Shown here: positions 17,730 to 22,923 of the stretch, piece by piece
How positions within the stretch are numbered: the stretch's first letter is position 1
Layout of the letters: the number at the start of each line of letters is the position of its first letter
Assembly: GCA_052145255.1 (NCBI GenBank)
Contig: JBKQOX010000026.1
Location: forward strand, 33,528 to 97,527
Direction: 5' to 3'
From: Terracidiphilus sp.
Lineage (GTDB): Bacteria; Acidobacteriota; Terriglobia; Terriglobales; Acidobacteriaceae
DNA length: 64,000 nucleotides
Notes under the pieces: generated by a model
Database searches by the model: none
What the model was told of the DNA's origin: nothing
Seen by the model: the letters and a program-made list of their open reading frames with translations, nothing else
Translations under genes and position numbers: made by a program

Positions 17730-18173
17730 GGAACCTGTGACGAAGGCACAGTGATACATAGCAAACCATAATTGGAATCAATGACCATTTTCCGTAGCTA
17801 ATTACAGGCGTCGGATCTGGCGTGGTCATTGAGCAGGTCTTAGGGTGCAACGATTAGTCCTCGAAAACGCCGATATCGCCCGCAAAAGCCCTCCGACCGA
17901 CCCCTTCTCGTCGCCCGCGCAAGCCCCTCCCGGCCGGCGATCCATCCCAACCCCGCTGCGCCTGCCTTTCTGTCAAGCTCTCAATCGCCCAAACGCGCCC
18001 ATCAAACTCACCCTAACCGCTTGCCTTTTCGGTCACTTATTGACTCCCAAATCTTCCTCCCCAAGTTTGCCGATCATTATGCCCGTTTGGCGCACAATAA
18101 TCCCATGATCGCTATTCCGAGAATCGTTGGCTCCCGGCTTTTCGCAGAAACGCGATCAAGGAGGAAACTTAAT

Positions 18174-18311
18174 TTAAGAAAAAATTTGGGATGTTTCGCC
18201 TGATTTTCGCCAAATAACTCGTTTAGAATCAGCGGGCGTATTCCGAAAATGGGCTGAAAATGAGCGCACTTAAGTCGAATCTATGTGCCATAACCCGTTT
18301 AGAATCAGCAA
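18174..18311 (+). repeat. AT-rich dispersed element, copy A, with two ATAACYCGTTTAGAATCAGC cores 76 bp apart
   Basis: 18174-18233 is 57/60 identical to the reverse complement of 29879-29938; cores at 18214-18233 and 18290-18309. Confidence 0.85.
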
Positions 18312-18809
18312 GAATATCCCAAGAAATGACGGACGGTTTTAAGAACCGCAAGCAACTCTCCTGAAAGGAGTTATTGGCCAACGCGGGCTATGCTGTCTGC
18401 TGTCTCCAGCTTGCTGTCTGAAGCCCGCTCTCCGCTATTCACTTTTCACTGTCCACTGTCTTAAAAACAGTGTGCCTCACCCGTTATGTCCCCCGACTCC
18501 CGAGTGAGGCACTTAGTTGTCCCAGGTCTCTAAATCGGAGTCTCCTCCCCCCGAAGCAGACTCCGACTTTTCGAGCCGCCCGACTACTACGGCCTTTTAC
18601 CTCTGCATCACGAATTCGGCTCCTCGTACCACCTGCCCGTGAAGCATTGGGACAACGGTCCCGGCATTCTCCCGCCGATCTTGCAATTGCTGCAGGCGAT
18701 GCATTGTAGGAGACGATGGAGGTCGAAGCTTTGTTGCAAAATCGGCGCGACAAAATCAGAGACATCAACGCAGGCATTCGCTGTTAAGGCAAGAAAAAAT
18801 CCGCATCAG

Positions 18810-18842
18810 GGAGCAACGGCCGCGCGCAGCGGCCATCGCTCC
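18810..18842 (-). terminator. Hairpin after degP, possible terminator
   Basis: Minus strand GGAGCGATGGCCG...CGGCCGTTGCTCC; the T-tract lies about 10 nt downstream of the stem. Confidence 0.45.
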
Positions 18843-18870
18843 TCCAATGCCGATCGTTACTCGCCGAACC

Positions 18871-20430
18871 TCACTCGCCGTTTTGCGAATTCTGATTTGG
18901 GTGCACCACGAGGAAGCTCTCGCCACCGTTCGCCCAAACCAGAAGCAGGACGTCTTTCCCTACAGGCTCCGAGTGAAGCTGGTTCACGAAGCTGTCCGCA
19001 TCCTCGACGGGATGACGGTCGACTCCGAGAATCACATCGCCGGGTGTGAGACCCGCATCTTCAGCCGCGCTGCCCGGACGCACTGATTCGATCACCGCGC
19101 CCTTCACCTGATCGGGCACGTTGAACTGCTGGCGCAGATCGGGAGTCAGGTTGGCCACGGCCAGTCCAAGACGGCCGCGCTGCTGGCTGCCCTGTTCGCC
19201 GTTGCTCGCCTCTTCATTCGTGTTGTGGAACTCGCCCACTGTCACGTGCAGCGTTTGCGGCTTGCCGTCACGAAGAATGCCCAGTGTGATCGCGGTCCCT
19301 GGCGTCATCTCGCTCACCGTAACCTGCAGCATGCTGCCGTTCGGAATCCCCTTGCCGTCAACCTCGCGCAGCACGTCGCCGCTCTCTAAGCCAGCTTTGC
19401 TGGCCGGCGAGTCCGGTGTCACCTGGCTGACGATGGCGCCTGTCGCATCGGGCAGGTTGAAGAAGCTCGAGTTGTCGGGCGTCACATCGTTCATGCTGAT
19501 GCCCAGGTAGCCGTGGTGCACGCTGCCGTTCTTGATGATGGCCTGCGCCGTGGCCTGGGCGATTTGCGACGGAATCGCGAATCCCGCGCCGGCAAACGAT
19601 CCGCTGCCCGAGATGATGAAGGTGTTGATGCCAATGACTTCGCCGTAAGCATTCACCAGCGGCCCGCCGGAGTTACCGGGATTGATGGCCGCATCGGTCT
19701 GGATAAAGGCGCCCGGCTTGCGCGGATCGTCGCGGTAAGGATTCGGGCGATCGAGGCCGCTGATGATGCCGCGCGTCACGGTAAAGGGGAAGTTGCCGAA
19801 GGGGTTGCCGAAGGCCAGCACGGTCTCGCCCGGCTTGATTTTCGTCGAGTCGCCCCACGGCACGCTGGTCAGGTCGTGCGCGTCGATTTTGATCACCGCC
19901 AGGTCGTTGAGTTTGTCGACACCGATCAATTTCGCGGTGAAGACGCGTCGGTCATTCAATGTGACGCGAATCTGCGTCGCCCCGTCGACCACATGATCGT
20001 TGGTGACGATGTATCCATCTGACGTTAGAATCACGCCACTACCGATGCCATGTTCGAACTGGGGCTGCGGTTTCATCTGCTGGCCGCCGGGACCGAAGAA
20101 GAACTGACGAAAGCCGGGAGGCAAATCCTGCGGATTGATTCCGCCGGGTCCCTGCCCGCCGTTCTCGGAGTTCTGATCGTCCTCGGAAACGCGCGAAGTG
20201 ACGGCCACGTTGACGACTGCGGGCGTGACGCGCGCGGCAACGGCTTCCACCGCGTTATCGAGCGCGACCAGCGACGAGACGCTGCTCTCATCGAGCGGCC
20301 CGGCGACAGCGGCGTGCGCTCTGCTGTGATCGAAAAAGAACGCAAGCGAAAACAGAACGGTGGCGAGGATACCAGCGGGAACTGCGAGCTTCTTGACGAT
20401 TGCTACTAATGAATTAGTTGTCAAAGACAT
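18871..20430 (-). CDS. DegP/DegQ (HtrA, Do family) serine protease with two PDZ domains
   Basis: Start MSLTT at 20430 after GGAGA; GSGVIL, VTNDHV, DLAVIK, QTDAAINPGNSGGPL, two PDZ domains. Confidence 0.93.
   Translation of the reverse strand: MSLTTNSLVAIVKKLAVPAGILATVLFSLAFFFDHSRAHAAVAGPLDESSVSSLVALDNAVEAVAARVTPAVVNVAVTSRVSEDDQNSENGGQGPGGINPQDLPPGFRQFFFGPGGQQMKPQPQFEHGIGSGVILTSDGYIVTNDHVVDGATQIRVTLNDRRVFTAKLIGVDKLNDLAVIKIDAHDLTSVPWGDSTKIKPGETVLAFGNPFGNFPFTVTRGIISGLDRPNPYRDDPRKPGAFIQTDAAINPGNSGGPLVNAYGEVIGINTFIISGSGSFAGAGFAIPSQIAQATAQAIIKNGSVHHGYLGISMNDVTPDNSSFFNLPDATGAIVSQVTPDSPASKAGLESGDVLREVDGKGIPNGSMLQVTVSEMTPGTAITLGILRDGKPQTLHVTVGEFHNTNEEASNGEQGSQQRGRLGLAVANLTPDLRQQFNVPDQVKGAVIESVRPGSAAEDAGLTPGDVILGVDRHPVEDADSFVNQLHSEPVGKDVLLLVWANGGESFLVVHPNQNSQNGE
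20405..20418. promoter_or_regulatory. Putative BlaI-family operator inside the first codons of degP
   Basis: ACTAA-TGAA-TTAGT, matching the palindrome upstream of blaI. Confidence 0.55.
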
Positions 20431-20461
20431 TGCTTCATCTCCATGGGTGTGAATTGCATGT

Positions 20462-22165
20462 TTAGAGTTGGAAGAACAGCCAGCCGCCATCGAATGCAGA
20501 TGCGGTTGGCCGATGGGAATGTGAACCTGTTGTTCGCGCAGACTTAGTGTCCGTGGTCGCGCCCGTCGGAGATCCTGTCATGGTGTTTGCCGGATACACA
20601 AGCAGAATCAGGTGCGTGACGGAAATCTGCGCGACCGGGGACGTGTTGCGCTTGCTGGTTGCGTCGTCGCTTTGTATTTGCGCGTCAGCGCCGGTTTCAT
20701 AGTCGGCGACTTCTCTGGACGTTGTTGCAGAAGATTGCGGTGCAGACGTCTCCACTTCTTCCCAGGCTGTGAGAACAATAAATTCCTGACCTTGCGTGGA
20801 AACCGCCGCCGGCGTGGAGGCTGCTGCATTCACCATCACCTGGTGTGGCGTAGCCTTACGATCTGTCATCGCCGTCTCAGCTGTCTCGTTGCTGCGGGGT
20901 GACCGAGCAGCAACGGGCGGCCCTGCCGCGCTGCGCGTTGCAGGAACAATAGACTTCGTCTCAATTGCGCGGTAATCCCTGGAAGGATGGAATACTGCAT
21001 TGGCGCCCGTCGGGCCTGGCTCACTCATTCGATCATCGGAAATCCGCGCGAGACGCGGAGCATCGGTCTGCTGCGGCGCGAGATCGGCCATCTGCGCGTC
21101 GGGCTTCGGCGCGGCAACAAACGCGACCAACTGCGGGCTGCGCGACAGTTCAACCGCTCCAACAAGCAAGCCGCATCCAACCATACCGACCAGCGCCCCC
21201 GCCGCCAGCGGATGGAGCGCCCGCCTGCGCCGAAGGATGCTGTCGACGCGGTGAACCAGTTCCGGCCGGCGTTCGAATACGCCCAGCGAAAGCGCCTGCG
21301 CACGGCGCAAAAACTCCCGCCGCTCGAATTCGCGGCGTTGCAGTCCGCGCTCTGCAAGGGCAGTCAGGCAGGCCGCATAGGTGCGCGGAGCCTGCGTCCT
21401 CTGAACCACTCCTTCGTCGCAGGCCATCTCGCGCTCGCGGCACAGGCGCCGCTCCATCCACGCCAGCGCCGGATTCAATGGAAATAGCACGAGAGCAAGT
21501 TTCTGCAGCAGATTCGTCCAGTCATCACGCCGACGCAGATGTTCGGCTTCATGCAAAATCACTTGTTGAAGCTCGCCCGGAGTCAGCCGCGAATAGAGCC
21601 ACTCGGGAATGAGTATCCGCGGCGCAAAAAAGCCAATAACGCTCGGCCGGTCAAGGTCGGGCGTGGTGCAAATCCCGATGGGCCGCCCAGGCAATCCCGC
21701 AAGCAGCGAGTGAAGATTCCCGTCCATTTCGATAGGGGTTGCGCCGCGCCACAGTCTGCGCAGCCGCAACAAATGAAAAACCAGCTCTGCAGCACGAAGT
21801 GTTGAAGCAGCCAACCACAAAGCGGCGATGGCGAATCCCCATCGGCTGTCCAGCTGGAGCCAGGGCCTTGCTGTTACTCCACCGGCCTGCGTAGCGGCGA
21901 TCACAGTGCCGGAATGCTCGAGAAATGGCAAGAACGGCAACAGAGCCGCAACTGCAAATCCCGCTGCCCAAGCCGCAAAGCGATGCGCAGCGGAGATGCG
22001 GAGCACGAGTCGCAGGCAAAGGACCAACGCAAGCGCAACCAGCGCGTCCTGCCAAAGCGCCGCCACAGCCGCCGGTGCCGCAGCGTGCGCAAAACCAGCG
22101 AATGCCGCTCTCACCGATTCAGCGAGACCCGCCAAAACCGAATCCGCTATCTGCATCAAGGGCAT
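20462..22165 (-). CDS. BlaR1/MecR1-like M56 metallopeptidase without a penicillin-binding sensor domain
   Basis: TM helices, PSVIGFFAPRILIP, ILHEAEHLRRRDD, FPLNP, EMACDE; low-complexity Ala/Thr/Ser/Pro-rich C-terminus. Confidence 0.88.
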   Translation of the reverse strand: MPLMQIADSVLAGLAESVRAAFAGFAHAAAPAAVAALWQDALVALALVLCLRLVLRISAAHRFAAWAAGFAVAALLPFLPFLEHSGTVIAATQAGGVTARPWLQLDSRWGFAIAALWLAASTLRAAELVFHLLRLRRLWRGATPIEMDGNLHSLLAGLPGRPIGICTTPDLDRPSVIGFFAPRILIPEWLYSRLTPGELQQVILHEAEHLRRRDDWTNLLQKLALVLFPLNPALAWMERRLCREREMACDEGVVQRTQAPRTYAACLTALAERGLQRREFERREFLRRAQALSLGVFERRPELVHRVDSILRRRRALHPLAAGALVGMVGCGLLVGAVELSRSPQLVAFVAAPKPDAQMADLAPQQTDAPRLARISDDRMSEPGPTGANAVFHPSRDYRAIETKSIVPATRSAAGPPVAARSPRSNETAETAMTDRKATPHQVMVNAAASTPAAVSTQGQEFIVLTAWEEVETSAPQSSATTSREVADYETGADAQIQSDDATSKRNTSPVAQISVTHLILLVYPANTMTGSPTGATTDTKSARTTGSHSHRPTASAFDGGWLFFQL

Positions 22166-22167
22166 GA

Positions 22168-22599
22168 TTATCTCTCGCCTCGCGCCTTACCGGGCGCCGC
22201 GTTCCGGATCGCTTCTTTATCGGGCGACGCGCTGCGAATCGCGTCGCGCAGTCGGTCCAGCTCCTCGGTGGAGATTTCCTTATCGCCCAGCAGGCTTAAC
22301 AGCAGCTTCTCGCGCGAGTTGCCAAAGAAGCGATTCATCACGTTGCGCACCTCTGAGCGGCCCGCCTCGTTTTCTTTGACGCATGGCCAGTAAACAAAGG
22401 CCCGCCCTTCCTGGCGATGTTCGACGTAACCCTTTTGCTCCAGGATTCGGATGGTGGTGAGCACAGAATTGTAGGCCAGTTGTTCGCCTTCCGGCAGGGC
22501 TTCAACCAGGTCGGTAACGGCCGACTCGCCGCGCCGCCAGAGGATCTTCATCAGCCTCAGCTCGGCTTCGGTCAACGTATTGGATTTTCTTGGCGGCAT
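22168..22599 (-). CDS. BlaI/MecI/CopY family repressor
   Basis: LTEAELRLMKILW, LAYNSVLTTIRILEQKGYV, FFGNSREKLLLSLL. Confidence 0.93.
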   Translation of the reverse strand: MPPRKSNTLTEAELRLMKILWRRGESAVTDLVEALPEGEQLAYNSVLTTIRILEQKGYVEHRQEGRAFVYWPCVKENEAGRSEVRNVMNRFFGNSREKLLLSLLGDKEISTEELDRLRDAIRSASPDKEAIRNAAPGKARGER

Positions 22600-22668
22600 C
22601 GCTAAGCGACTGATCCTAATAGATGAATCTCTTCCATCCCTGTGTCTTCGTCCGTCTTATAGACGAAC

Positions 22669-22684
22669 AACTAAAGGATTAGTT
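22669..22684. promoter_or_regulatory. Putative BlaI-family operator upstream of blaI
   Basis: AACTAA-AGGA-TTAGTT perfect 6-4-6 palindrome; a minus-strand TATAAG -10-like box lies at 22657-22662. Confidence 0.7.
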
Positions 22685-22923
22685 ACCAGAAATGCCGAGA
22701 TTTTTCAAGAGCCCGCGGCGACCCGTTCATTCTCCGCGCAAACCGCCCTCTCGAAATCTCTGCCCTGTGCTACGATCCGTGCAAGCGTTCACGCAATCGC
22801 TTTCTTGCACGAAAATTCTGGACTGAGCCGTTGGTTTCTTCCGGCGCGATCACCCGCGAGGACCGTCCAAAAAACGGCGCGTTACCGGCACAATGAACGC
22901 GTCGCAGGCGCATAGAGGATGAC

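Follow-up and report, generated by a model that had tools for sequence, protein, structure and literature searches.

The BlaI/BlaR1 pair is the textbook switch of inducible beta-lactam resistance. BlaI/BlaR1 and MecI/MecR1 of Staphylococcus aureus and Bacillus licheniformis are the described systems closest to the locus analyzed here, which lies in a 64-kb stretch (the window) of a Terracidiphilus sp. genome (4.28 Mb, 59.7% GC) and comprises a blaI gene, a gene for a BlaR1-like M56 metalloprotease (blaR) and a degP gene, with two copies of the palindrome ACTAA-N4-TTAGT, one upstream of blaI (O1) and the other inside degP (O2). By database naming, the close relatives are Terracidiphilus/Acidobacteriaceae metagenome-assembled genomes of peat and soil. 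Common to the described pairs and to this locus are a dimeric winged-helix repressor of PF03965 with an adjacent M56 zinc-protease transducer, autoregulation through a dyad on the repressor's own promoter (predicted here) and paired operators. Moreover, the S. aureus mecA operator, GACTACATTTGTAGTA, is a 14-bp dyad with the same outer bases and spacing, ACTA-N6-TAGT (PMC1935004). In contrast to BlaR1, the Terracidiphilus M56 protein lacks a penicillin-binding sensor. The output of the described switches is a beta-lactamase or PBP2a, whereas here the sole downstream gene encodes a DegP/HtrA protease; their genes are divergent, whereas here repressor, sensor and output are collinear and the second operator lies within the output's own coding sequence, at a distance of 1.8-2.7 kb. 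The operator core also differs (TAAN-NN-NTTA instead of TACA-NN-TGTA), as do the residues aligned to the scissile N-F bond of MecI. By protein families, the pair is BlaI/M56; it fails several hallmarks of a beta-lactam switch, namely the penicillin sensor, the TACA core, the N-F site and the resistance output.

A BlaI/M56 pair that likewise has no beta-lactam sensor, a non-antibiotic role and a very small regulon is PetR/PetP of Synechocystis (petE/petJ, copper). PetR acts at the promoters of unlinked targets as both repressor and activator, whereas at the Terracidiphilus locus a single in-operon target with an intragenic operator is predicted. The RseA/DegS/RseP-sigmaE control of E. coli degP is alike in that a membrane proteolytic cascade, likely also present here, links an envelope signal to the transcription of a DegP-type protease, but here there is no sigma/anti-sigma pair, a cleavable repressor is proposed instead, and the HtrA-family protein is the output and not a demonstrated sensor. 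Repressor sites in transcribed or coding DNA downstream of a promoter are represented by PurR in purB, the CcpA and CodY roadblocks (PMC4132739), lac O2 and gal OI; in comparison, the present site is attributed to another repressor family, occupies codons 5-9 of the third gene of its operon and has its dual coding kept across a bacterial family. Full-text literature searches found no paper tying BlaI/M56 to HtrA or to Acidobacteria. Already known, then, are a non-antibiotic BlaI/M56 pair and intragenic repressor sites in other families; the new features, as read from the DNA, are the HtrA/DegP output, the split operator pair with one copy in codons 5-9 of the output gene and the family-wide dual coding.

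The best-supported reading, already put forward in the original prediction, is that DegP is the output of the unit, controlled through an intragenic BlaI operator, and that the locus is not a beta-lactamase switch. It is favored because O2 is frozen in 92/92 loci, the palindrome lies on the predicted blaI promoter in 104/104, the motif occurs only together with the operon, and degP is the sole non-regulatory gene and is followed by a hairpin (loci were pooled across Terracidiphilus/Acidobacteriaceae, 104 for O1 and 92 for O2). DegP is thus very probably the regulated output of the operon. The genes and sites concerned are as follows.

22669..22684, minus strand: O1, a perfect 16-bp 6-4-6 palindrome AACTAA-N4-TTAGTT, ~84 nt upstream of the blaI ATG.
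22168..22599, minus strand: blaI, a 143-aa winged-helix repressor of the BlaI/MecI/CopY family (PF03965, E = 3.8e-31, residues 9-122).
20462..22165, minus strand: blaR, a BlaR1-like M56 membrane metalloprotease of 567 aa (PF05569, E = 2.2e-27, residues 44-269 only).
20403..20420, minus strand: O2, CAACTAA-N4-TTAGTAG, spanning degP from the third base of codon 4 through the first of codon 10, with its core at 20405-20418.
18871..20431, minus strand: degP/HtrA, a periplasmic serine protease with Trypsin_2 and two PDZ domains (Pfam).

A pattern search of the window returned exactly two matches to ACTAA-N4-TTAGT, at 20405-20418 (ACTAATGAATTAGT) and 22670-22683 (ACTAAAGGATTAGT), each preceded by ACA on the strand given for it in the original prediction, which had reported the same two copies and no third. 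Dinucleotide-preserving shuffles of the window contained no such palindrome (0/100). The earlier expectation that a chance origin is unlikely was thereby borne out, and chance is ruled out as the source of the pair, since the shuffles expect none and the pair recurs in more than 90 species. In the genome-wide scan that had been proposed as a check, only four exact copies were found in the whole 4.28 Mb, the two outside the window belonging to a distinct TetR/efflux class described below.

On the minus strand, the start of degP reads ATG TCT TTG ACA ACT AAT TCA TTA GTA, whereby the palindrome makes up codons 5-9, as had been predicted. This position follows from the true start being ATG 20431 and not ATG 20490, up to which the reading frame stays open. 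The upstream start, which would overlap blaR, was ruled out because ATG 20431 and its Shine-Dalgarno sequence are kept in 92/92 loci, with GGAG conserved 8-10 nt 5' of the ATG among the orthologues.

20439..20443, minus strand: GGAGA, Shine-Dalgarno sequence of degP, 8 nt before ATG 20431 and inside the 30-nt blaR-degP spacer.

Relative to this start, O2 begins exactly 12 nt past the ATG in 92/92 loci; its left half, AACTAA, is present in all 92 and its right half, TTAGT, in ~80%. Whether a profile is anchored on the motif or the ATG, conservation in the half-site columns equals that of the start codon and is near random in the flanks. The codon usage within the half-sites is as follows.

Codon 4, third base: always A (92/92), with seven amino acids encoded there (T, S, P, V, K, A, E); A accounts for 8.7% of third positions elsewhere.
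Codon 5: ACT in 92/92; in the remainder of these degP genes, 11% of the Thr codons are ACT.
Codon 8: TTA in 92/92; in the remainder of these degP genes, the share of TTA among Leu codons is 1.2%.
Codon 9: GTA in 62/78 Val codons; GTA accounts for 7.8% of Val codons elsewhere.

The spacer between the half-sites varies and alters the encoded residues (S/Q/H/L, N/K), and codons 2-3 and 10-16 drift synonymously, with Leu15 written as CTC, CTG or TTx and Ala16 with all four codons. Since the rare and silent positions are fixed while the spacer and the neighboring codons vary, selection appears to act on the DNA of the half-sites and not on the peptide. Conservation of a T-N-x-L-V peptide was accordingly rejected as the cause, rare synonymous codons being fixed and the third base of codon 4 being held constant across seven amino acids. 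Free variation at the synonymous positions had been set beforehand as the outcome that would speak against an operator; the opposite was found, with half-sites frozen in 92/92 loci and variable flanks.

The upstream site shows a comparable constancy. An exact AACTAA-N4-TTAGT precedes blaI in 104/104 orthologous loci, typically 78-86 nt from the ATG, and its columns are the most conserved of the blaI upstream region in the 104-locus profile; a G usually comes next after the O1 palindrome. In ~28 species of the genus, with BlaR identities of 44-85%, a search with the BlaR protein recovered blaI, blaR and degP in this order, nearly always with both palindromes, and a BlaI search of the GTDB species representatives yielded 80 further loci. 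The composite pattern ATG-N8-AACTAA-N4-TTAG, accompanied by BlaR upstream and by this degP, was also seen in several further genera of the family and rarely beyond it. The distance between O1 and O2, 2.26 kb here, ranges from 1813 to 2742 bp across loci.

When 61 genomes of the genus were scanned with AACTAA-N4-TTAGT, nearly all sites fell into two classes, a TetR class of the form AACTAAC-YR-GTTAGT and a class with A/T-ended spacers whose members are paired ~2 kb apart on one contig. The nine genomes without a BlaR orthologue contained TetR-class sites only, or none, and no BlaI-class site. To the TetR class belong the two genomic copies outside the window (C3:18947-18960 and C6:18987-19000), which read TTTACTAACCAGTTAGTTAA, a longer 6-2-6 palindrome kept genus-wide as AACTAAC-YR-GTTAGT; one directly precedes a TetR gene, after which comes an HlyD-type efflux gene, and the other is found upstream of a gene for an outer-membrane efflux protein (OEP). 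These sites probably constitute a TetR efflux regulon. A single regulon for all four genomic copies was ruled out, as the C3 and C6 copies are TetR-type palindromes and the two classes separate cleanly in the genus scan.

It is highly probable, judging from the sequence comparisons, that O1 and O2 are operators of the operon's own BlaI. BlaI is proposed as the binder because the motif is always present on the blaI promoter and occurs only where blaI-blaR-degP is present, because it is a short dyad of the size usual in the family with an ACTA-N6-TAGT frame matching the mecA operator, and because a paralogous BlaI carries similar paired sites around its own promoter. In that paralogue (C2:7534; sites at C2:7470-7526), two CCTAA-N4-TTAGG sites flank its own TTGACA/-10, and the genome has no others; they share the architecture of the operon's sites but have a different outer base. 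A more distant paralogous locus (L033) also supports the assignment, since it has a diverged dyad of the ATTAAT type. The repressor aligns over its full length with the crystal-structure sequences of MecI (1sd6, 1okr) and BlaI (1sd4). As a separate observation, another BlaI paralogue of this genome (C25:79748-79764) is closely preceded by TGTTAC-N5-GTAACA, a dyad found once more at C1:145956.

The position of O1 points to autoregulation, since it overlies the predicted promoter of the operon.

22680..22708, minus strand: predicted operon promoter, with -35 TTGAAA at 22708-22703, a 17-nt spacer containing TG at 22688-22687 and -10 TAACTA at 22685-22680.

This arrangement, TTGAAA-17-TGnTAACTA, has extended -10 geometry, and the -10 element and the predicted transcription start fall inside O1. 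The 104-locus profile shows conservation of the A-tract/TTGAAA, the TG and the T at -12 upstream of O1. On the downstream side of O1, after a gap of 5-7 nt, comes a CGTCTAT block (window 22640-22668) that is likewise conserved and often serves as the 5' arm of a short hairpin, here CGTCT-ATA-AGACG; this block probably marks the 5' end of the operon mRNA. Further downstream (22600-22625), blaI has no canonical Shine-Dalgarno sequence, and many orthologues have a weakly conserved gAATCAA-N4/5-TTAG just before the ATG, possibly a third, degenerate BlaI site that covers the ribosome-binding region.

At its other end, the transcription unit likely terminates directly after degP.

18791..18845, minus strand: terminator-like GC-rich hairpin followed by a T-run, directly 3' of the degP stop, as read from the sequence.

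A generic scan does not call this hairpin a terminator. The gene beyond it is convergent (MacB-like), and because of the hairpin/T-run 3' of the stop and this convergent neighbor, degP is taken to be the last and the sole structural gene of the unit. By prediction, blaI, the M56 gene blaR and degP are thus one three-gene minus-strand operon. The DegP translation contains the His, Asp and Ser motifs TNDHV, NDLAVIKI and GNSGGP. A metatranscriptome contig of 549 nt, from a relative with ~91% identity, runs from the 3' end of blaR across the spacer and O2 and is compatible with co-transcription of blaR and degP, although it is unstranded and possibly DNA. Searches of public data for RNA-seq runs of an isolate found none. 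The ~1 kb between degP and the MacB-like gene (17760-18790) holds no convincing open reading frame and is AT-richer.

The following mechanism is proposed for the locus. Bound at O1, over the extended -10 and the predicted start, BlaI would repress its own operon. A BlaI dimer on O2 would act as a roadblock to polymerases escaping from the leaky, partly repressed promoter, thereby keeping DegP off but leaving basal expression of the sensor and repressor genes; cooperative looping of the two sites may reinforce the roadblock. An extracytoplasmic signal would activate the M56 protease, BlaI would be inactivated, both sites would clear and DegP would be made. O2 is regarded as an operator-like site without a promoter because it has neither the TG nor the T(-12) of O1, no clustered promoter lies upstream of it, the ~30-nt spacer is occupied by a Shine-Dalgarno sequence, and an adjoining TTGACA is present in only 6/92 loci. 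It therefore fits the layout of a roadblock site, being promoterless and placed in a region predicted to be transcribed, 2.26 kb from O1 on the downstream side. Roadblocks in transcribed DNA are documented for PurR, GalR, CcpA, CodY and LacI (PMC4132739). Our confidence that roadblocking would be the principal action of O2 is evenly divided, and we give the same even weight to the explanation taken as a whole, in which both sites are BlaI operators, O2 is a roadblock and relief through the M56 protease leads to DegP synthesis.

Several observations weigh against this explanation. O2 has an imperfect right half (TTAGTA), which in ~12/92 species reads as a degenerate TTAAG or TTAAT, so that BlaI binding there may be weak or dependent on O1. 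The canonical core of the family, TACANNTGTA, is not present at O1 or O2, whose cores are TAAT-CC-TTTA and TAAT-TC-ATTA, respectively, and which have only the outer ACTA/TAGT and the 14-bp span in common with the mecA operator. The residues of BlaI aligned to the scissile N101-F102 bond of MecI are S-L (LLLS/LLGD), and BlaI-family repressors are dimers. A generic sigma-70 scan does not report TTGAAA-17-TGnTAACTA, and the -10 TAACTA is weak. Finally, another metatranscriptome contig of a relative reaches ~140 nt upstream of O1; being unstranded, it could be DNA or the transcript of a divergent neighbor, and since both contigs are unstranded and may include DNA, neither is decisive.

Intragenic auxiliary operators are well established, as exemplified by lac O2 in lacZ and gal OI in galE, and O2 might be of this kind. 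BlaI bound at both O1 and O2 would then loop out the ~2.2-kb blaI-blaR segment and raise the occupancy of the promoter operator, with the roadblock contributing little. In keeping with such a role, O1 and O2 are of the same sequence class and always paired, and O2 consists of one perfect and one weaker half-site, as expected of a helper site. Paired operators are also usual in the BlaI family, the paralogue having two sites and CopY and BlaI two dyads each (PMC7253601, PMC1935004). However, the distance between O1 and O2 is long and variable, BlaI and MecI are described as dimers with no tetramerization known (PMC1935004), and a helper could sit anywhere, yet O2 is always found at the start of the output gene. 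Looping as the main function of O2 is considered unlikely, and the roadblock, as the simplest action, remains preferred.

The original prediction had left the choice between a roadblock and an internal promoter at O2; the former is now favored, whereas the latter is disfavored because TTGACA is not conserved and there is no -10 or extended -10 at O2. In this alternative, degP would have its own promoter in the 3' end of blaR, in the 30-nt spacer or at TTGACA, and O2 would be an ordinary promoter-proximal operator. TTGACA does adjoin O2 in this genome, as had been noted, but it needs TTG as codon 3, which only 6/92 orthologues have, so that the hexamer cannot be called conserved. A promoter at O2 itself would moreover place the start of transcription past the ATG, and the resulting protease would lack its signal anchor. 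A scan for -35/-10 consensus pairs in the 300 nt upstream of degP in the 92 loci gave 14 hits, which were scattered and did not cluster by position, conservation is poor in the columns 5' of the Shine-Dalgarno sequence, and O2 is devoid of the promoter bases seen at O1. What speaks for a promoter besides the hexamer is the spacer, a G-poor leader with conserved TTCAAC repeats ahead of the Shine-Dalgarno sequence. On balance, a promoter of degP's own is highly unlikely.

The spacer repeats are a feature in their own right: at 20444-20461 and in the orthologous spacers genus-wide, one to five TTCAAC/CAAC repeats stand just 5' of the Shine-Dalgarno sequence, and they could serve as a standby or enhancer element for the ribosome or as a protein site. 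A sigmaE/extracytoplasmic-function-type promoter in these repeats seems less likely, as their spacing does not agree with the E. coli sigmaE consensus. An antisense promoter at O2 (TGcTACTAA, plus strand) was likewise considered; it lacks a -35 and the T at -7.

The element might instead act in the RNA, as a hairpin or an RNA-binding-protein site near the degP start, or be bound by a regulator other than BlaI, given that it lies within the degP ribosome footprint at a position fixed relative to the ATG in 92/92 loci and that ACTAA/TTAGT half-sites are also used by the TetR regulon of this genome, but this is hardly plausible: shuffled controls fold more stably than the 5' region of degP (z = +0.86), whose minimum-energy structure does not contain the palindrome hairpin, the stems never covary and are strictly invariant, as expected of base-specific protein contacts, O1 overlaps the predicted start, so that a transcript from the promoter as predicted would not contain it whole, the TetR-class sites are a different extended palindrome (ACTAAC-YR-GTTAGT) with target genes of their own, and the motif tracks the presence of blaI.

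The sensor half of the module has a well-defined catalytic core and an unusual tail. The zinc motif HEAEH lies at residues 205-209, with H205, E206 and H209 invariant in 63 orthologues, and in the AlphaFold2 model the M56 core has a predicted local distance difference test score (pLDDT) of 85-94, while residues 340-567 are below 50. No penicillin-binding sensor domain was found on the protein, there being no Pfam match past residue 269 and no PDB sequence match. The C-terminal ~220 aa are of low complexity and end in a conserved GGWLFFQL; within this region (20465-21140, the last eight codons at 20465-20488), a variable low-complexity linker precedes a GW(L/F)(V/I)(F/I)Q(L/I)-COOH tail, and this tail, together with the motifs VLTAWE and QITVTRLILxVYPA (both strand-like), is kept in more than 60 orthologues and in another genus. 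By M56 topology, the tail is periplasmic and would share its compartment with DegP and its PDZ domains, for which it could be a ligand.

From this tail, a closed feedback sensor of periplasmic folding stress can be drawn, in which the disordered M56 tail, whose end resembles the YxF/YQF C-termini of outer-membrane proteins, would be a tethered ligand of the PDZ domains of the co-encoded DegP. Free DegP would hold or trim the tail, keeping the M56 protease silent; unfolded substrates would titrate DegP away, M56 would cleave BlaI and both operators would open, with O2 in degP codons 5-9 setting a threshold for DegP apart from that of the sensor genes. We regard this scheme as quite unlikely.

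To our knowledge, thousands of sensor-less M56/BlaI pairs occur in environmental bacteria without a known function. At the present locus, the output can be assigned from sequence alone with unusual confidence, as an HtrA/DegP quality-control protease, and this across a family of Acidobacteria that are abundant in soil and peat. As a natural example of dual coding, the locus is also very clean: a putative protein-binding palindrome is kept in rare codons, presumably over long evolutionary time. Such a layout could let one transcript express the regulators and the output differently.

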